Shown here piece by piece: positions 3,371-13,743 of a stretch of 64,000 nt of DNA. Source of the stretch: Planctomycetota bacterium (lineage in GTDB: Bacteria > Planctomycetota > SZUA-567 > H5-PLA8); assembly GCA_038227875.1 (NCBI GenBank), contig JBBRPR010000019.1, positions 32,001 through 96,000 on the forward strand, written 5' to 3'. Both the position numbers and the translations under genes were made by a program. The notes under the pieces are model-generated. The model was not told where the DNA came from. It worked only from the letters and a program-made list of their open reading frames with translations, and made no database searches. Each line of letters starts with the position of its first letter. Positions within the stretch are counted from its first letter, which is position 1.

Positions 3371-4411
3371 GTGGGTCTTTTCGGTCGAAAAAAGAGCCTG
3401 CTCGGTCTGGACATTGGCTCCTCCTCGGTGAAGGCGGTTGAGCTCACACGCGTGGGCCAGAGCGTCGTTATCACCGGCATGGGCAAGGCGGAAGTCGAAA
3501 GCCCGGAAGCCGTGGGCGAAGCGATCACGGCGGCATTGCGCGAAGGTGGCATTAAGACCAAGCGCGCCTGCAGTTCGGTCTCCGGACGGTCGGTGATTCA
3601 CCGCCAGGTGCCGATGATGTCGATTCCAGACGCCGAGCTCAAACAGGCGATGGAATACGAAGCCGATAAATATATTCCCTTCGACGTGACCGAAGTGCAG
3701 CTCGACGCGCAACGCATGCGCGAGGGCGACACGGAAGAAAATCAGGCCGGCGCTCCTGCGGGGCAGATGAAAGTGCTGCTGGTCGCCGCCAAGAAGACGC
3801 TGATCGAAGAGCACATCAATCTGCTGCAGTCGGTTGGACTTTCGCCGGTGGTCGTCGACGTGGACTTCCTGGCCTTGGGCAACGCCTTCGAACTGCGCAA
3901 TCTGATGCTGGGCATCAATGATAACGAAGTTCGGGCGCTGGTGGACATCGGCGCGAGCAAGACGGACATCAACATCATGCGCGGCAACAGTTCGTACTTT
4001 CAGCGCGAAATCTTCATGGCCGGCAACGATCTGACAGACGCGGTCGCCAAGCGCTTCGGTGAAGATCCGAAGGACGTCGAGAAGATGAAGAAGGATCCGG
4101 GCGGCGCGCTGGAATCCATGCAGGACGCGATGCTGCCGGTGCTCGAAGACATCGGAAGCGAAATCCGGCTCTCGTTTGACTACCACGAAAATCAGCACGA
4201 TCAGGAAGTGAAGGAAGTGTACATTTCGGGCGGATCAGTACTGTTCCCGGGCATCGACACGATGCTGGCGCAGATTTTCAATCTGCCGATCAAGGTGTGG
4301 GATCCGACGGAAGGGCTGGAAATCACAGGCTTCAATCCTGGCGGCATGGGCAGTGCCAATTCCGACATGGCAATTGCGCTCGGTTTGGCCAGCCGCTTGA
4401 GGAACATGTAA
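3371..4411 (+). CDS. pilM: Type IV pilus assembly protein PilM (actin-like)
   Basis: LGLDIGSSSVKAVEL, EADKYIPF, ALVDIGASKT, YISGGS, IALGLA. GTG start after SD AGGAG. Confidence 0.93.
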   Translation: MGLFGRKKSLLGLDIGSSSVKAVELTRVGQSVVITGMGKAEVESPEAVGEAITAALREGGIKTKRACSSVSGRSVIHRQVPMMSIPDAELKQAMEYEADKYIPFDVTEVQLDAQRMREGDTEENQAGAPAGQMKVLLVAAKKTLIEEHINLLQSVGLSPVVVDVDFLALGNAFELRNLMLGINDNEVRALVDIGASKTDINIMRGNSSYFQREIFMAGNDLTDAVAKRFGEDPKDVEKMKKDPGGALESMQDAMLPVLEDIGSEIRLSFDYHENQHDQEVKEVYISGGSVLFPGIDTMLAQIFNLPIKVWDPTEGLEITGFNPGGMGSANSDMAIALGLASRLRNM

Positions 4412-4413
4412 GC

Positions 4414-5169
4414 ATGATAGAAATCAATCTATTACCGGAAGATCTCCGGCAGGCGGAAGGCACGCCCATCATACGGCTCGCGGCGATCATGGGATCGGTC
4501 GTGGTGGCCTGCGGTCTGGGCGTGATGATCAGTTTCTACTACATGGTTTACATTCCGCGCGTCAAAGACGACATCAAGCAGCGCGAAGTGGACATCGCTA
4601 ATTTGAAGGTGCGCGAAGCCGAAGTCAAAGAAATCGACAACCAGATTGCCAAGCTGCAGGAAAAGGTCCAGGCGCTCGACAACCTCAACCAGAGCCGCAT
4701 GCGCTACGGCCGTCTGTTTGATCATCTCACCAATTCGATGCCCGATGGCGTATGGTTCAAAGGCTTCACGGTTGGACCGGAAGCAGGCACGATTGGTCTG
4801 CCTCCCAGCCTGGGCGGCAAACGCTACACCATCCAATTGACCGGCGTCTCCACGGGCGGCACGGACAAGGAAATGGACAATCGCATTACCGAGTTGGTTC
4901 ACAACATGGAACGGGAATTCGGCGTGGCTCGCGAAGAATGGAAGCCCAAGCCCGGTGATCCGCCCGGCGCAGTTGCGCCTCCGCTATTTGGTTTCAACAA
5001 GGAGTTGGGAGCGCGATTCTTCCATCCCGACACACCGAACATCACGGTCACCACGTTGCCTGCGCCGCTGGATGTGCCCAAGGAAGCGCTGAAGGCGCTG
5101 AATGCTCCAACGGTGGGACACGATTTTACGATGTCGTTCACGTTTGAAATGCCGCCGCCCAAGAACTGA
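4414..5169 (+). CDS. pilN: Type IV pilus assembly protein PilN
   Basis: N-terminal MIEINLLP motif, one TM helix, coiled coil, PDGVWF; lies directly after pilM. Confidence 0.88.
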   Translation: MIEINLLPEDLRQAEGTPIIRLAAIMGSVVVACGLGVMISFYYMVYIPRVKDDIKQREVDIANLKVREAEVKEIDNQIAKLQEKVQALDNLNQSRMRYGRLFDHLTNSMPDGVWFKGFTVGPEAGTIGLPPSLGGKRYTIQLTGVSTGGTDKEMDNRITELVHNMEREFGVAREEWKPKPGDPPGAVAPPLFGFNKELGARFFHPDTPNITVTTLPAPLDVPKEALKALNAPTVGHDFTMSFTFEMPPPKN

Positions 5170-6775: not shown

Positions 6776-8767
6776 TTGGTTGAGGAAATGTCGTTTCCTC
6801 GAGCGTCCATCCGTTGCACGGGCTCGCTGCAGATCAGCGGACGTGTGCGGTACGCTCACGCCAAATTAGTGTCGCGCTTTATGCTCTGTGGAGTTCTGGC
6901 CTGTGCGGCCGGGGCGCTCCAGGCGGGCGACGATTCAGGTCCGGTTCTACGCCGCGTAGAATCGATCACCAGCAGCGAAGATATCCAAGCCGGCACGCAA
7001 GCGCCCGGCGCGCTGATCACGCTTGAAGTCAATGAGCGTCCCCTCAAGCAGGTGTTGGACTATCTCTCCACCGTCAGCGGAAAGAACATCCGCGTCGTCA
7101 AAGAGAAGGACAACAAGCTGCTGATCACGTTCAAGCTTGAGAACGTGACCTACCGCGCGATTCTCGATTTCATTGCCCGCAAATATGGCATGGTCATCGA
7201 TGACACGCAGTTGCGCACCGGCAACATCATTTTCGTGGATACGCCTGAAAAGGTCTCCATGGTGTTCCAGCGCGCCGACATCCGCGACGTCATCAACACC
7301 ATCGCGATCCAGTCGAACGCCAACATCGTGATCGGACCGGAAGTAACCGGCGAAGTCTCGATGCGCCTGGAGAACGTGCCTTGGAACGACGCGCTGAACA
7401 TCGTCGTCAAGACGTTGGACTTCGTGGCGGTGCCGGAAGTCAACAACACCATCCGCATCACCAGCCCGGCGAAAATCGCACAGCAGCTGGACATCCGCAT
7501 CTTCCGACTGGCGTACATTTCGCCGGAAGGTTCGAAGTACACCGCGGTGCTCAACAGCGAATTTGCCAAGCGTGAAGAATCCAAGGATACCGCCGCCGCC
7601 GGCCAGTCGTTGATCGACGTGCTGACGAAGGTCAAGGGATCCCAGGGTACGATCTCGTTTGAAAAACGCTCCAACGCCCTGGTTGTCCGCGACACGTCCA
7701 CCAGCCTCGACCAGATGCAGTTGATCATCGACAAGCTGGACGTTCCGCCCAAGCAGGTGCACGTGGCCGTCAAGCTCGTCGAACTCTCCGATTCCGATTC
7801 GGAAGCGATCGGCGTGGACTGGGGCAACGGACTGCAGCTCCAGGTCAATCCGATCAGCGGCTTCTCGACTGCCTTCCCATTTGACGTCTCGAACGGGCTG
7901 AGCAACTCGCTGCTGGGCAAGTTGGCGGTCGGTCTTGCGCCCACCCGCGTCCCCGCTGGAAACACGCACGTCGGATCTGACATCTTCGGATTGGGATCCT
8001 CAGTCAACCGCGGCGGCGATGGACTGCCCACCTCCGTCTCCCCCTTGGGTCTGGGTTCGGTGAGCACGGCCGGCACCAATGCTCTCCTGCAGTTGATTCG
8101 CACCAAGACCAGCGGCCGGGTCATCCAGGCACCGCAGATCATTGCGCTGGATAACGAAGAAGCCACGATTCAGGTCGGCGAACTGGTCCGCTACGCGGAA
8201 ACGTTCGTGGCGAACACTGAAGGTGGTGGAAACGTTTCCGGTTTCCGCGAAGCTTCCGGCTCGCCCATCAAGCTGGGAACGCAGCTCCTGATCATCCCGC
8301 ACGTGACCGGACCTGAAAACAATGTGCTGATGACGGTGGTGCCGAAGGTTGAAAGCTTCAGCACTTCCCGCAGCGGACTCAACGGCGCTCCGGCCGGATT
8401 CCAGCGCTTCAACGGCGCGGGCATCTCGTTGGACTTGCCGCAAACCGCCCAGCGCATCGTGGTGACCAAGATGATGCTGCGCAACGGCGAAACGGGCGTG
8501 ATCGGCGGACTGCGCGCCGAAACCGACGCGACGTCGGAAACGAAAGTTCCGATCTTCGGCGAAATTCCGGTGCTCGGCCGGTTGTTCAAGCACCGCGGCG
8601 CCTCGTCGTCCAGCACCAACCTGCTGGTCTTCGTGACACCGACGATTGTTGACTTCCACGAAAGTGATACGTTCAAGAAGGAACTCGACCGCCTGAAGCA
8701 GGACTTCTCCCGGCCTTTCACGCCGCTGGGCGAAGAAGAAGAAACCACGGCCTCGGCGGCCAAGTAA
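6776..8767 (+). CDS. pilQ: Type IV pilus secretin PilQ / GspD family (start codon uncertain)
   Basis: N-domains (ADIRDVI...VPWNDAL), LDVPPKQV, APQIIALDNEEATIQVG, GETGVIGGL, KVPIFGEIPVLGRLFK, LLVFVTPTIV. Confidence 0.9.
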   Translation: MVEEMSFPRASIRCTGSLQISGRVRYAHAKLVSRFMLCGVLACAAGALQAGDDSGPVLRRVESITSSEDIQAGTQAPGALITLEVNERPLKQVLDYLSTVSGKNIRVVKEKDNKLLITFKLENVTYRAILDFIARKYGMVIDDTQLRTGNIIFVDTPEKVSMVFQRADIRDVINTIAIQSNANIVIGPEVTGEVSMRLENVPWNDALNIVVKTLDFVAVPEVNNTIRITSPAKIAQQLDIRIFRLAYISPEGSKYTAVLNSEFAKREESKDTAAAGQSLIDVLTKVKGSQGTISFEKRSNALVVRDTSTSLDQMQLIIDKLDVPPKQVHVAVKLVELSDSDSEAIGVDWGNGLQLQVNPISGFSTAFPFDVSNGLSNSLLGKLAVGLAPTRVPAGNTHVGSDIFGLGSSVNRGGDGLPTSVSPLGLGSVSTAGTNALLQLIRTKTSGRVIQAPQIIALDNEEATIQVGELVRYAETFVANTEGGGNVSGFREASGSPIKLGTQLLIIPHVTGPENNVLMTVVPKVESFSTSRSGLNGAPAGFQRFNGAGISLDLPQTAQRIVVTKMMLRNGETGVIGGLRAETDATSETKVPIFGEIPVLGRLFKHRGASSSSTNLLVFVTPTIVDFHESDTFKKELDRLKQDFSRPFTPLGEEEETTASAAK

Positions 8768-8780
8768 GGATCAACATCTG

Positions 8781-8817
8781 AAACGGGCGGCGGAAAATTT
8801 CCGCCGCCCGTTTTTTT
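8781..8817 (+). terminator. Rho-independent terminator of the pil operon
   Basis: AAACGGGCGGCGGAAA-A-TTTCCGCCGCCCGTTT followed by a T run. Confidence 0.85.
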
Positions 8818-9138
8818 ATTCCCGCTCTGCCTTGGAACATTGCCACAAAAGTGTGATGGAAACGGAGTAGGTTTAAGGCTAGACTCGATTTTGGCTTTGG
8901 GAGGGTATTCAGCCTTCCGCCGACGATTCCGGTGGCCAACGAATTTTCAGTAGAACTGCCGGCTCGGGGCGGTCCCAGGCCGGATTCAGGTGAACTCAAG
9001 GATCTGTCGCGCGGCATCTCCTCCTATCGCACCCGAAATGTAAGCGGGCTGATTCCCCGGTCGTGAGCATGAAGCTCGCGTGGAAGGTGAGTAGCTTGCA
9101 AGTGTGCGGATGTGAAGGCCCCAGTAGTGTTCGCTGCG

Positions 9139-9870
9139 ATGATTCAGCAAAAGGTAGAAATCCGTTTCGAGAAGGGTGAGGCGATCCGCTTCATCTCGCA
9201 CCATGACCTCATGCGCGCGTTGATGCGTGCAGTGCGCCGGGCGAAGTTGCCGGTGCGGCTGACCGAGGGATTCAACCCCCGGCCGCGCATCGTCTTTCCC
9301 GTGGCGCTCGAGGCTGGCGTCGCTTCCCTCGACGAAGCAGCGGAAATCGAATTGACTCAATGTCTAGCCACACAGGAAGTTTTCAGTCGTCTTTCCTCCG
9401 TCTTACCCCCGGGCATCCAGCTGAAGGCAGTGAAGGATCTTCCGCCGCGTCGGGCGGGACAGACTCCGATTCGGATTCAGTATCTTCTTCATCTGGTGGA
9501 AGCGGGGATTCAACTCCAAACGCTCCAACTGGAAAACCTGCTAAAAGCTCCAGCGCTGCCCTTCGAGCGACCAAGGGAAAAGCATCTGCAAAAAGTGGAT
9601 CTAAGGCCGGCGCTGCTCGCGCTAAGCCTAAATCCACAGGGAAATCTGCTGGTCGAAGTGAAGCCAAGCCCAAGCGGGTCAGTAAGACCGCTCGAAGTGC
9701 TAAGCCTGCTGCTGAACGTGCCGCTGGACGACGTGAAGCGAGTGCGCGTGACGAAGCTGCTCATGGAACTGCAGACGCCACCGGAACTGACGCCGGAACA
9801 GCAAACCGAACGCGAACTGCTGCTGCAGAGGGAACTCGACCGGGATCAGGAGCAGGAAGCGGAAGCGTAA
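9139..9870 (+). CDS. Radical SAM-linked protein (TIGR03936/DUF2344-like)
   Basis: RFEKG..RFISHHDLMR..RRAKLP..TEGFNPRPRI..AL..G..S..E, then LPPGI, VDLRP and GSVRP.EVL. Sits in the usual position upstream of rne/rng. Confidence 0.85.
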   Translation: MIQQKVEIRFEKGEAIRFISHHDLMRALMRAVRRAKLPVRLTEGFNPRPRIVFPVALEAGVASLDEAAEIELTQCLATQEVFSRLSSVLPPGIQLKAVKDLPPRRAGQTPIRIQYLLHLVEAGIQLQTLQLENLLKAPALPFERPREKHLQKVDLRPALLALSLNPQGNLLVEVKPSPSGSVRPLEVLSLLLNVPLDDVKRVRVTKLLMELQTPPELTPEQQTERELLLQRELDRDQEQEAEA

Positions 9871-12800
9871 CAACGCACGCTGCTCCGACTCAGGAATCCG
9901 CGCCGCCTGCTCCAGCACCGGTTCAACACACGCCGCCGGCCCCAGCGTCCCATTCGACGCCTTCATTCAACGAATCGGCCGCCGATGCACAGCCGGCTCC
10001 CATGCGCCCTAAGTCCGGCGACGTCGACGAATCGGCCGCCGATGCCGCCGCCGCCGCGCGCGCAGCACAGATTGTCGCCAGCATGATCGGCGTACCTCCC
10101 GGCGCGGCCGGTCCGCAGCAATTCCGCCCCGGAAGCCAACCTCGACCGGGCCAGGGTGGACCTGGACAGGGTCAACACCGGGGCCCCGGACAGGGCCAAG
10201 GCCAGATGGATGGCGGACGGCGTAAGCGTCGGCGGCGCGGACGCGGCGGTGACCGCTTCGCTCAGCCCGGCGGTTTGCCCGGCCAGCCCGGCCAACCTCG
10301 ACAGCCCGGAGTGCCTCAGGGCAACCGGCCTCCGCACCTGCCCCGCCCTCCGCACGTTTCGCCGCCGGTTTCCGGTGCCGTTACGCCTGACACGGGCACG
10401 CAGATATCCACACCCGTCGATCCTGCCGTCGTCATTACGCCACCGGCCGCTGTGATCATGGATACACAGAACGTTCACGCCGTCGATCTGAATGCGACGT
10501 CGTCCGTCGCGCCTGTATCCGCGCCGGCGCAGACGGGTCAGCCTTCGCAACAACTTCCGCGCCATCAGCAACCGCGGCGTGATCGGGATCCGCGCGACCG
10601 TGATCGGGATCGCGATCGCGACAGTGGCCAGGTTTCATTGCCCCCCGTGAAAAAAGTGGTGTTAATGAACGCCACCGATCCCGGCGAAATCCGCGTCGCG
10701 ATTCTTGAGAACGGTGAGCTCGCAGAAATTTTCATGGAACGCAAGAGCCGCGGGCAGCAGGCGGGCAACATTTATAAGGGCCGCGTGGTCAACGTGGAAC
10801 CGTCGCTTCAGGCGGCATTCGTCGATCTGGGCACGGAACGCAACGGCTTCTTGCACGCATCGGACTGCATTCCGCCCGACGGCGGCTACGGCGACATCCT
10901 GACAAAATTCAAGCCCGGCGCGGGCCGTCAACCGTTGCCGCCGCAGGCGCAGGTCCAGCAGCCGCAGCAGCAGCACCGAGGTCCGCGCGACCGGAACGAT
11001 CGCAACGCCGCGCGCCGTGAACAGTATCAGCAGCGCCGCGATGCGCAGCTGCCGGGTGGTGTGCCGCAATCCGCGCCCACCTCTCCAGCAATTTCGTCAC
11101 TGCCCTCGGCTCCGCCTGCCGATGCAGTCGCAGCCACAGCGCCAGTTTCTGTTCCGGTCACACCCGCTCCGGACGTCGACCCGACGGTGATTCGGATTGC
11201 TCGCCCCGGCGTTCCGTTGCCTCCCGCGCCAGCTCCGGTTGCACCGGCCGCGCCAGTTGATTCAACGTCAGCCGCAACGCCGACGGACGCGCCCGCTTCC
11301 GCGCAGGACGCCGCCCCCTCAAATCCTTCCACCCAGTCGTACGACTCGGATGAAGATGAAGACGAAGACGATCTCGAAGGCGGAGAAGGTGAAGGCGACG
11401 ACGACGAGGGCGATTCTGAACAGGGTGAAGGCGGCAACGCTGCGCCCATGATCGCCGGCCAAGGCGCGCCGGGAACTGGAATCGCGACAGGTCAGCCGCA
11501 GCACTCCGGCCAGCGCCCGCCGTTTGCCGCCAACAGTCAAAATGGTGGACGCCGCCGGCGCCGACGCCGTGGTGGACGCGGACGTTCCGGACGTGGCCGC
11601 CCGCCGGGTCCCGCGCCGATGATGGCCCCAAATCATGGCAATCCGGAAGGCTCCGGAAACGCCGACGCACCGCAAGGTGGTGACGTTCATCCCGTCACGC
11701 CTCCGGTTTCGAATCCGATTGTTGAAAAGCCGCCCGAAACTACGGCGCCCGCTCCCGTCATTGTTCCAGATGCTGCGCCCGAAGCCGTGCCCGTCAGCAG
11801 CAGCAACGAACCGGTCACGAGCGCGCCTGTGGCCACCGAAAGCAATTCCCCTTCACAGCCGGCGGAAGTGCCCGCCTCGGAACCGGCCGCACCTGAAGTT
11901 GTCGACGAAGAGTCCGAAACGGAAATCGATACCGATAACGTTCCGCCTGTGTCGAATGGTACCGGCGAAAGCGAAAGCGAATCCGAGAACGGCAATGAGT
12001 GGCATGAGCATCCCGTGAGCGAGGAAGCGCCGCCGACGGAGATTATCGTCCCGGAAAGCAAGCCCGCTCAGTCTCCGCGCGAAGCCGCGCCGATTCCCGC
12101 GCCGGGACAGCCCGCGCCGGTTCAGCAGCGCCGTCCGGACGGTGGCGGACGCAGCGGTCGCGACCGTGGCGATCGTCGCTACACGATTCAGGAAATGCTC
12201 CGCGAAGGCCAGGAAGTGCTCATTCAGGTCGCCAAGGAAGGCATTGGTCAGAAGGGCCCGGCGCTCACGACGTACCTGAGCATGCCCGGCCGTTACCTGG
12301 TATTGATGCCGGCCGTGCAGCGTCTGGGCGTTTCCAAGCGCATCGAGAACGAAGAGCAGCGCCGCGCCCTCAAGGACGCGCTCAACCAGCTCAACCCGCC
12401 CGACGACATGGGCGTGATCGTGCGCACCGCCGGCACGGGACGTTCGAAGGACGAACTGCAGCGCGACATGGATTACCTCGTCCGCGTCTGGGATACGTTG
12501 AAGAAGAAGGCGAAAGTTGCCCGCGCTCCCGCACTGATCTATCAGGAAGGCGACGTGGTGACGCGCGTCTTCCGCGACGTGATCACCGACGACGTGGCCG
12601 AGATCATCATCGACGATCCGGTGGTCGCTGACCGCGCCCGCGAATTCCTGCGCGAAAACGCGCCGGGAACGGAAGGCAAGGTCAAGCTCCACGCCGACGC
12701 CGAACCGCTGTTCCACAAGCTGGGCGTCGAACAGCAGCTCCAGCGCCTGTTCAACCGCAAGGTCAATCTGCGCAGCGGCGGCTCGATCGTAATCGAGCAG

Positions 12801-13445
12801 ACCGAAGCGTTGATCGCCATCGACGTGAACACCGGCCGCTTCCGCGAAAAGCGCAGCCAGGACGACACCATCCTGGCGACGAATCTCGAAGCCGCCCGCG
12901 AAATCGCGCGTCAGTTGCGGTTGCGGGACATCGGCGGCCTGGTGATGATCGACTTCATCGACATGGAACCGCACGAACACCGGCGCCGCGTCGAACGGGA
13001 ATTGAAGGCGCATCTGCAGCGCGACAAGGCCCGCATCAACGTGCTGCCGATCAGTTCGCTGGGCGTCGTGGAAATGACGCGCCAGCGCATCCGGCACAGC
13101 CTGCGCAAGACGCTCTTCGACCGCTGCCCGCATTGTTCAGGCTCGGGCCACGTGAAATCGGCCGAATCGCTGGGGCTGGAAATGCTCCGCGAAATCAAGG
13201 GGCAGTTGCGGGACGCAACGGTGAAGCGGGTGCTGGTGAAGGTGAATCCCGCGGTTGCCTTTGACATTTTGAACCAGTTCAGGAAAGATCTGGCACGTTT
13301 GGAAGAAACTCGCGGGATCGCCATTGAAGTCCGGGGGGACGGCACTGTGCCGTTAAGCCAGATCCAGGTTTCGACCGCCAAAGAGGGCGGCGAGTGGGTG
13401 CTCAAGAAAATAAGTGAGGTTGATGACTATGTACGCAATTCTTAA
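9360..13445 (+). CDS. rne: Ribonuclease E/G family, 1361 aa, with a long disordered N-terminus and an ~435-aa insertion in the S1 domain (start uncertain: 9360 or 10002)
   Basis: EIRVAILENG, GNIYKGRVVNVEPSLQAAFVD, QEVLIQVAKE...KGPALTT..S.PGRYLV, IDVNTG, RLRDIGGL..IDFIDM, CPHC Zn-link. Confidence 0.93.
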   Translation: MSSHTGSFQSSFLRLTPGHPAEGSEGSSAASGGTDSDSDSVSSSSGGSGDSTPNAPTGKPAKSSSAALRATKGKASAKSGSKAGAARAKPKSTGKSAGRSEAKPKRVSKTARSAKPAAERAAGRREASARDEAAHGTADATGTDAGTANRTRTAAAEGTRPGSGAGSGSVTTHAAPTQESAPPAPAPVQHTPPAPASHSTPSFNESAADAQPAPMRPKSGDVDESAADAAAAARAAQIVASMIGVPPGAAGPQQFRPGSQPRPGQGGPGQGQHRGPGQGQGQMDGGRRKRRRRGRGGDRFAQPGGLPGQPGQPRQPGVPQGNRPPHLPRPPHVSPPVSGAVTPDTGTQISTPVDPAVVITPPAAVIMDTQNVHAVDLNATSSVAPVSAPAQTGQPSQQLPRHQQPRRDRDPRDRDRDRDRDSGQVSLPPVKKVVLMNATDPGEIRVAILENGELAEIFMERKSRGQQAGNIYKGRVVNVEPSLQAAFVDLGTERNGFLHASDCIPPDGGYGDILTKFKPGAGRQPLPPQAQVQQPQQQHRGPRDRNDRNAARREQYQQRRDAQLPGGVPQSAPTSPAISSLPSAPPADAVAATAPVSVPVTPAPDVDPTVIRIARPGVPLPPAPAPVAPAAPVDSTSAATPTDAPASAQDAAPSNPSTQSYDSDEDEDEDDLEGGEGEGDDDEGDSEQGEGGNAAPMIAGQGAPGTGIATGQPQHSGQRPPFAANSQNGGRRRRRRRGGRGRSGRGRPPGPAPMMAPNHGNPEGSGNADAPQGGDVHPVTPPVSNPIVEKPPETTAPAPVIVPDAAPEAVPVSSSNEPVTSAPVATESNSPSQPAEVPASEPAAPEVVDEESETEIDTDNVPPVSNGTGESESESENGNEWHEHPVSEEAPPTEIIVPESKPAQSPREAAPIPAPGQPAPVQQRRPDGGGRSGRDRGDRRYTIQEMLREGQEVLIQVAKEGIGQKGPALTTYLSMPGRYLVLMPAVQRLGVSKRIENEEQRRALKDALNQLNPPDDMGVIVRTAGTGRSKDELQRDMDYLVRVWDTLKKKAKVARAPALIYQEGDVVTRVFRDVITDDVAEIIIDDPVVADRAREFLRENAPGTEGKVKLHADAEPLFHKLGVEQQLQRLFNRKVNLRSGGSIVIEQTEALIAIDVNTGRFREKRSQDDTILATNLEAAREIARQLRLRDIGGLVMIDFIDMEPHEHRRRVERELKAHLQRDKARINVLPISSLGVVEMTRQRIRHSLRKTLFDRCPHCSGSGHVKSAESLGLEMLREIKGQLRDATVKRVLVKVNPAVAFDILNQFRKDLARLEETRGIAIEVRGDGTVPLSQIQVSTAKEGGEWVLKKISEVDDYVRNS

Positions 13446-13743
13446 CGACCGCGGCCACCAGTACAAGGTTAAGGAGGGTGAACTCCTCCGCGTCGATCAG
13501 CTCAGCGCCGCCAAGGGCGCGGCGGTGACGTTCGACCAGGTGTTGCTGCTGGGCAAGGACGGTGGCAGCGTCACCGTCGGTTCGCCCAACGTCAGCGGCG
13601 CGAAGGTGACCGGCGTGGTGGAAGATCACGTCAAGGGCGAGAAGACCATCTCGCATCACCGCGTGCGCACCAACTCGCTGGGTACCCGGCGCGGCCACCG
13701 CACCAAGTACAGCCTGGTTCGCATCCAGAAAATTGTCGGCTAA
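13429..13743 (+). CDS. rplU: 50S ribosomal protein L21
   Basis: MYAIL...GHQYKVKEG...G.P.V.GAKV...RRGHR. SD GAGGT; overlaps the last 17 nt of rne. Confidence 0.93.
   Translation: MYAILNDRGHQYKVKEGELLRVDQLSAAKGAAVTFDQVLLLGKDGGSVTVGSPNVSGAKVTGVVEDHVKGEKTISHHRVRTNSLGTRRGHRTKYSLVRIQKIVG

Follow-up and report, generated by a model that had tools for sequence, protein, structure and literature searches.

INTRODUCTION

When two core genes of a cell overlap over a long stretch in different frames, the overlap is usually dismissed, and gene callers do not allow it. Here we analyze a 64,000-nucleotide (nt) stretch of DNA from a Planctomycetota bacterium (GTDB lineage SZUA-567; H5-PLA8; assembly GCA_038227875.1, contig JBBRPR010000019.1, positions 32,001 to 96,000 of the forward strand; hereafter the window), in which the gene for an RNase E-type enzyme, rne, likely starts within the gene of a DUF2344/TIGR03936-family protein and runs through the rest of it in another frame. 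By analogy, the closest documented case appears to be the rnpA/rpmH pair of Thermus. In the excerpted account of that pair, rpmH is fully nested out of frame, the two AUGs lie one nucleotide apart and share a Shine-Dalgarno sequence, and expression was shown experimentally (Feltens et al. 2003, as described in PMC9841429). As far as that excerpt goes, in both systems two core genes on one strand share DNA in different frames, and in both the N-terminal part of a component of an RNA-processing enzyme is written over a neighbor. The planctomycete locus differs in that the second start lies 220 nt inside the first gene, the overlap measures 511 nt, a folded TruA-like domain is overwritten, and the arrangement is known from sequence alone.

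Elongation of the 5′ end of a downstream gene is described, in the excerpted text of one genomic survey, as a route to unidirectional overlaps; the commonest overlaps in that survey were 4 nt and 1 nt, and its simulations were capped at 59 nt (PMC3887535). The DUF2344–rne arrangement resembles the mechanism outlined there, with a downstream gene adopting an upstream in-frame start within its neighbor, but the overlap here is about tenfold longer and has been conserved throughout a family. Long antisense overlapping open reading frames (ORFs) of 957 and 1536 nt within annotated genes of Pseudomonas aeruginosa have been argued, in the portion of the report available, to be under selection (PMC8850804). 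On that account they are antisense, embedded and young, whereas the overlap described here is on the same strand and extends an essential, ancient gene.

With respect to the protein, the excerpted report on Caulobacter RNase E describes a C-terminal disordered domain with alternating charge blocks that forms BR-bodies, the positive blocks being proposed to bind RNA (bioRxiv 10.1101/272286). The planctomycete enzyme likewise would carry disordered, charge-block regions attached to its catalytic core. Compared with the Caulobacter domain as excerpted, which is C-terminal and encoded by its own DNA, these regions are N-terminal and inside the S1 domain, their first 170 residues are overprinted, and they are known only at the sequence level. 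The mycobacterial-type RNase E family NF052588 has a long N-terminal extension (PMC12767347), and the catalytic part of the window protein aligns to positions 410–750 of its 945-position profile, so that a stretch of about 400 residues lies ahead of the core in that family as well. Membership in NF052588 was rejected, the score of 258.8 falling far below the cut-off of 1400.

RESULTS

The rne frame opens within the DUF2344 gene

The features on which the argument depends are as follows.

9112..9870, + strand: DUF2344/TIGR03936 gene; an ORF of 252 amino acids (aa) from GTG 9112, or 243 aa from ATG 9139.
9330..9390, + strand: proposed rne initiation region, of low structure and relatively A/T-rich.
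9360..9362, + strand: conserved ATG, proposed start of rne; third base of codon 83 (CAA) plus the TG of codon 84 (TGT).
9360..9870, + strand: putative dual-coding overlap of 511 nt; DUF2344 residues 84–252 (counted from GTG 9112) and residues 1–170 of the rne arm.
9360..13445, + strand: rne ORF, 1361 aa, ATG start.
9420..9749, + strand: rne-frame charge blocks within the arm, from net charge per 10 aa; an acidic block at residues 21–50 (9420–9509), then a basic, Lys-rich one at residues 51–130 (9510–9749).
9871..10649, + strand: non-overlapping part of the N-terminal arm, residues 171–430, with a conserved helix and an Arg cluster near residues 285–297.
10650..13445, + strand: RNase E/G catalytic body, beginning at residue 431; an S1 domain split by an insert, followed by the RNase_E_G and thioredoxin-like domains.

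An earlier reading of this DNA, made without database searches (the sequence-only reading), had placed an uninterrupted rne frame from ATG 9360 through about 170 codons at the 3′ end of the DUF2344 gene, in the −1 frame, and the ORF coordinates agree with it: the rne frame is +2 (equivalently −1) relative to DUF2344 (9360 − 9112 = 248 = 82 × 3 + 2), and the arm peptides quoted in that reading occur in the translation of ORF 9360..13445. The DUF2344 gene itself most likely starts at ATG 9139; the corresponding 243-aa form is present in a public collection of about 15 billion predicted proteins.

The start codon and open frame are conserved throughout a family

DUF2344 was detected in 40 of 41 related genomes, and its adjacency to rne holds across Planctomycetota; none of the conclusions depends on the unpublished genome G017. 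The sequence-only reading had proposed aligning orthologous DUF2344–rne loci, and this alignment bore the proposal out: the −1 frame and its ATG are conserved family-wide, the frame ahead of the ATG behaves as expected by chance, and outgroups differ. The family set comprised 17 genomes and, after metagenome contigs were added, 39 sequences dereplicated at 97%, all from metagenome-assembled genomes (MAGs) or metagenome contigs, with 54–100% identity to the DUF2344 protein of the window. Among the 39, three are cut by contig ends and one (L127) by an apparent chimeric junction; another (L045) was counted over 400 codons, since its DUF2344 frame reads through. An ATG occupies the homologous position in all 17 genomes and in all 39 dereplicated sequences, and in 15 of the 17 genomes the rne frame contains no stop from this ATG through the DUF2344 stop and beyond.

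Synonymous resampling of the 39 DUF2344 sequences predicted 134.4 stops in the rne frame of the overlap, and 2 were observed. Ahead of the ATG, where this frame serves as an internal control, it contained 93 stops against 92.0 expected, which removes a compositional explanation. With locus-specific codon usage at 15 loci, the overlap held 1 stop where about 47 were expected, and the part ahead of the ATG held 38 where about 36 were expected. An exact calculation put the chance of an open frame at 0.001–0.12 per family genome, the GC content at third codon positions (GC3) of the family being 0.55–0.83. The +1 frame holds 3–18 stops per family locus, and the nearest upstream in-frame stop lies at most 27 nt from the ATG in 10 of the 17 family loci. 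The family sequences are related, so P values overstate the case; synonymous sites of DUF2344 among them are near saturation. In the 12 relatives with a traceable catalytic domain, the overlap measures 424–556 nt.

The ATG is retained although the residue that contributes its first base is not. Codon 83 is CAA in 28 sequences, GAA in 7, ACA in 2, and GCA and ATA in 1 each; thus five residues (Gln, Glu, Thr, Ala and Ile) are encoded, every time by a codon ending in A, and codon 84 is only TGG, TGC or TGT. Within the window, CAA accounts for 19.5% of the codons for Gln, ACA for 6.4% of those for Thr and GCA for 8.3% of those for Ala. An alignment of the N-terminal extensions shows no downstream start that keeps its position, and two relatives (L040 and L041) contain no ATG, GTG or TTG between the conserved ATG and the catalytic domain, where ATC or CTG are the only near-cognates.

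Contigs from an independent DNA run (X2) are identical to the window over 9432–9678. The same run carries an in-frame 18-nt insertion at 10598, within an Arg-Asp repeat, and a 3-nt deletion at 10964, both of which keep the rne frame and represent strain-level length variation. In L127, the metagenome contig switches at about position 680, in the middle of DUF2344, to what appears to be the opposite strand of a secretin gene, with both frames intact before this point; a chimeric assembly or a rearrangement is the likely cause.

Outgroups and a sister family delimit the arrangement

The outgroups comprised 61 loci from Brocadiaceae, Gemmatales, Phycisphaerae and other MAGs. In most of them, the first start codon of rne lies 5–30 nt past the DUF2344 stop, where the catalytic domain begins. 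Nine more distant loci (L022–L030) all have stops in the +2 frame. In outgroups with TGG at codon 84, an A precedes this codon in 7 of 33 (Fisher P 1.5e-13 against the family, relatedness ignored).

A sister family of 10 sequences contains both states: in six, the ATG occurs together with an open frame, and in the other four, CTG or GTG occurs together with stops; there are no mixed cases (P 0.0048). As the GC3 of this family is near 0.9 and the chance of an open frame 0.4–0.5, openness by itself is uninformative there. In the locus tree, family f1 groups with f3 and f5 with f6; f3 and f6 lack the overlap, and this pattern implies either losses or two origins.

The region around the ATG is weakly structured

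The 61 nt centered on the ATG (−30 to +30) have a folding dG of −7.8 in the window, against a gene mean of −15.5, and thus fall in the weakest 5% of 61-nt windows. This region lies within the weakest-structured 10% of the gene at 14 of 16 family loci but at 6 of 61 outgroup loci, where the median rank is 0.47. Immediately ahead of the ATG, synonymous codon identity reaches a peak (0.62, compared with 0.41–0.57 in neighboring windows). A single RNA run (X20), which like the DNA run consisted of Logan contigs, yielded a 259-nt contig over 9127–9368 with 6 differences, which is uninformative on starts.

DUF2344 remains a family member, predicted to be folded, across the overlap

The sequence-only reading held that DUF2344 keeps its family character within the overlap, and full-length profile matches confirm this. 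PF10105 matches residues 14–193 over profile positions 1–176 of 176 (E 4.9e-38), and TIGR03936 matches residues 15–216 over positions 2–206 of 209 (153.6 bits, cut-off 71.9). As the family match extends about 130 codons into the overlap, the overlap is not the tail of a decayed gene. A structure predicted from an 80-sequence alignment has a mean predicted local distance difference test (pLDDT) score of 95.8 and no weak segment, the overlapping part included. In a Foldseek search with this model, the best match was the pseudouridine synthase TruA (1vs3_A, E 3.3e-7, TMq 0.58), followed by PUS3 and TruA. The DUF2344 protein is thus confidently predicted to have a TruA-like pseudouridine-synthase fold over its whole length.

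Codon usage in the DUF2344 frame shifts where the rne frame begins, exactly as the sequence-only reading had counted. CTA codons occur at 9364, 9541, 9601, 9622, 9628 and 9700 and nowhere in 9139–9357, and five of the six read AAA or AAG (Lys) in the rne frame, where CTG would read Glu. Among the 1,490 Leu codons of 27 long ORFs in the window, 2.1% are CTA; in the overlap, CTA makes up 6 of 36, where about 0.8 would be expected (binomial P about 1e-4). CCA, TTA and AGA occur in the overlap 6, 1 and 1 times, respectively, whereas all are absent from the N-terminal part of DUF2344. Codons ending in A make up 44 of 170 (26%) in the overlap, compared with 12% in the N-terminal part and 11% in window ORFs (P about 5e-8), and the DUF2344-frame codon-usage score drops from 0.36 bits per codon before the overlap to 0.08 within it. 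The ratio of C-terminal to N-terminal divergence of DUF2344 is 3.9 in the family and 2.4–2.7 in matched outgroup pairs. This faster divergence of the C-terminal part fits a cost of double coding and is no proof of one.

The putative overprinted arm has a patterned charge

We compared the arm with a null made by synonymous resampling of DUF2344 at 15 family loci. In the window, the arm has 13 Lys residues against an expected 2.4 ± 1.1, and its most basic 40-aa stretch has a charge of +12 against 4.9 ± 1.6. Across the 15 loci, the most acidic 40-aa window is more acidic than the null allows in 12, the most basic window more basic in 10, and Lys is in excess in 10. The proposal that codon choice adds Lys and sharpens the charge blocks therefore holds beyond what synonymous resampling yields. 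Relatives' arms bear Arg-rich rather than Lys-rich blocks, and the description of the arm as "histone-H1-like" survives as a statement of composition (Lys, Ala, Pro and Ser) for this genus only; as homology it does not, since a Pfam search with the 1361-aa protein (E up to 0.01) returned the S1, RNase_E_G and thioredoxin-like domains and no family on the arm.

Hydrophobic residues make up 5% of the arm, and Ser, Gly, Pro, Ala, Gln, Thr and Asn together 69%. In the predicted structure, residues 1–213 have pLDDT values of 33 to 54 and no secondary structure. The overlapping arm is thus predicted to be disordered, with an acidic block followed by a basic one. Within the N-terminal extension, only a helix spanning residues 222–242 (10023–10085; pLDDT 73–83, the rest below 55) is predicted with confidence. 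It matches a motif conserved in the closest genera, is followed by the Arg cluster, and may be a docking motif.

The rne product is an RNase E/G-family enzyme

The catalytic body matches PF10150 (RNase_E_G) at residues 974–1243 (E 8.7e-104) and TIGR00757 with 506 bits (cut-off 325.95) in two stretches, which assigns the predicted product to the Rne/Rng family. PF00575 (S1) reaches 22.7 bits against a cut-off of 22 at residues 467–502 only, the domain being split by an insert, and PF20833 (thioredoxin-like small domain) matches residues 1256–1337 (E 1.6e-17). The equivalog cut-offs were missed both for RNase E (NF008074, 419.7 against 908) and for RNase G (NF008689, 414.2 against 594); we call the protein RNase E solely on the basis of its size and gene context. 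It lacks a C-terminal disordered region. The insert in S1 comprises about 430 aa (10875–12164) of low complexity, including an acidic block with a net charge of about −19 over 30 aa and an Arg block of about +11 over 20 aa.

Neighboring genes

Three features flank the pair.

6776..8767, + strand: secretin gene (ORF list and Pfam), upstream neighbor of the DUF2344 gene.
8780..8814, + strand: intrinsic-terminator-like hairpin; a 16-pair stem, 10 of its pairs being G-C, with a T run behind it.
13414..13743, + strand: rplU, encoding L21 (PF00829, E 5.4e-26); its start overlaps the end of rne.

The hairpin behind the secretin gene would set DUF2344–rne apart as a separate transcription unit. An Rfam search of 8600–10800 gave no match at the gathering score, and weak sub-threshold matches fell on this hairpin. 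The overlap between rplU and rne is 32 nt from GTG 13414, or 17 nt from ATG 13429, where the L21 match begins. DUF2344 is usually partnered, by adjacency or fusion, with a TIGR03960 radical-SAM protein. In this genome the only TIGR03960 match (705 bits) lies on another contig (G000 C1 137574–139331, L111) and not beside DUF2344–rne.

DISCUSSION

Probable translation of rne from within DUF2344

From this comparative evidence we infer that the RNase E of this organism, and of the whole family, is probably translated from ATG 9360 or its counterpart and carries an overprinted N-terminal arm. Selection on the rne frame looks as if it acts on the open frame, the start site and the charge pattern and not on a fixed sequence. 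A further expectation, suppressed synonymous variation in DUF2344, was not borne out at deep divergence, where synonymous codon identity is 0.48 in the overlap and 0.52 elsewhere, and found weak support in close, non-independent pairs, where four-fold differences are 0.272 and 0.338, respectively.

This lack of clear suppression is one of several observations that weigh against translation from 9360. By codon usage, the overlapping part of the rne frame scores −0.63 bits per codon, no better than the −0.60 of the non-coding stretch of this frame ahead of the ATG. The 9360 initiation region shows no recognizable Shine-Dalgarno-like motif, and a sigma-70 promoter scan of 8700–10100 found 0 sites, although planctomycete promoters may differ. 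Total Lys plus Arg exceeds the synonymous null at just 2 of 15 loci, since GC-rich DNA read out of frame yields much Arg in any case. The arm is missing in the four sister-family sequences with stops and in families f3 and f6. In L035 (G005, about 779–805), the rne frame is broken by a single TAA that lies 70 nt ahead of the DUF2344 stop, and in L045 (G014, 3501–4926) the DUF2344 frame runs stop-free into the RNase E catalytic domain. The +2 frame is open in 13 of 61 outgroups (GC3 0.77–0.97), and the comparative data come wholly from MAGs and metagenome contigs. Shorter RNase E isoforms are also possible in the window, where the stretch from the DUF2344 stop to the catalytic domain contains 12 in-frame ATG, GTG or TTG codons.

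The leading alternative is that rne translation begins only past the DUF2344 stop, at ATG 10002 or later, and that the open frame is untranslated and kept by a non-coding cause. It would draw on the twelve start codons between 9871 and the catalytic domain, on the non-coding-like codon usage of the rne frame in the overlap and on the unclear synonymous constraint on DUF2344. The conserved helix and the Arg cluster both lie downstream of 10002, and in L035, which retains the conserved upstream ATG, another in-frame ATG follows 8 codons after the TAA. A later start nevertheless leaves unexplained the 2 stops where about 134 are expected beside a normal upstream control, the ATG kept across five identities of codon 83, and the unstructured region centered on it. 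Nor does it account for L040 and L041, with only ATC or CTG available downstream, or for the lack of any downstream start conserved in position. We regard this alternative as improbable.

Chance or artefact is far harder to maintain. GC-rich DNA often has open alternative frames that read as Arg/Gly/Ala-rich, as the open outgroup loci and the sister-family probabilities illustrate; however, the family has a lower GC3 and a small probability of openness per genome, its pre-ATG control equals expectation, and its members are not near-copies, with DUF2344 identity down to 54%. The exact open-frame calculation for outgroups used 14 hand-picked loci, eight of them chosen for long open frames, and all 61 were counted separately. 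Only one of the 61 (L087, GC3 0.92) combines an ATG with a +2 frame that is open and in phase with rne. Close relatives of this locus carry CTG or GTG at the ATG site, and the combination in L087 is probably due to chance.

A programmed −1 frameshift or gene fusion, in which DUF2344 ribosomes would slip into the rne frame to give a DUF2344–RNase E fusion, agrees with the −1 relation of the frames and with the read-through in L045 but is scarcely credible, since it requires neither a conserved ATG nor an open frame that begins there, a slippery heptamer is absent from the overlap in 7 of 10 family loci (the three single matches lying at different positions), and L045 comes from a six-contig MAG whose genus relative L043 has a truncated rne, which makes an assembly indel likely.

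Further observations concern these two loci. In L045, the old arm frame is open up to the start of the catalytic domain, and the merged frames would reflect either a DUF2344–RNase E fusion or a one-base assembly indel, the latter being plausible. In L043 (G006), unlike its genus-mate L044, the rne frame ends about 300 codons past the start of the catalytic domain, probably owing to a frameshift in an eight-contig assembly.

A proposed origin of the arm

Based on these data, we propose a plausible route by which translation of rne from within DUF2344 could have arisen. The ancestral state would have been that of the outgroups, with rne starting 5–30 nt after the DUF2344 stop. In the family ancestor, the 5′ end of rne would have extended upstream into DUF2344 by overprinting, with the start landing on the conserved Trp/Cys codon 84, the only conserved codon able to supply NTG in frame. 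An NTG in the +2 frame arises only on Cys or Trp codons; this would place the start at codon 84 and so account for how long the overlap is. Residues 1–170 of RNase E would thereby be written over DNA that also encodes the C-terminal two thirds, predicted to be folded, of the TruA-like DUF2344 protein. Disordered regions with patterned charge, which in other RNase E proteins bind RNA and drive self-assembly, would be supplied here by the arm, the remainder of the N-terminal extension and the S1 insert.

A stronger version, which we put forward as doubtful, adds a regulatory role. Ribosomes on DUF2344 must pass through the rne initiation region, and translation of DUF2344, a TruA-like and presumably RNA-binding neighbor, would set the output of the arm-bearing RNase E; the arm and the S1 insert would act in Planctomycetota as the N-terminal equivalent of a condensate-forming RNase E scaffold, and L045 would be a genuine fusion that points to the two proteins being physical partners.

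Novelty and significance

The 13 candidate rne proteins that were looked up, nine of them beginning at the conserved ATG and four being shorter, ATG-initiated versions from the window gene, are absent from the collection of about 15 billion predicted proteins that holds the 243-aa DUF2344 form. A protein search with arm residues 1–175 gave no match among proteins of 748–2382 aa, the sole length class searched, which is no proof of absence. Because these forms are missing and the arm has no match, the RNase E of this family is probably annotated everywhere with the wrong N-terminus. Our literature search found no paper on this overlap, on DUF2344 biology or on planctomycete RNase E.

DUF2344–rne is an unusually long and well-supported overprinted same-strand overlap, of a kind that is itself already known. 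The comparative evidence is unusually clean in having both an internal control, the frame upstream of the ATG, and an external one, the outgroups. The locus would show, in nature, a disordered arm of one protein overprinted on the folded domain of another, and how the genetic code fixes where such a start can arise, with NTG available only on Cys and Trp codons. For the family, it would add a physical link to the widespread pairing of DUF2344 and RNase E/G genes.

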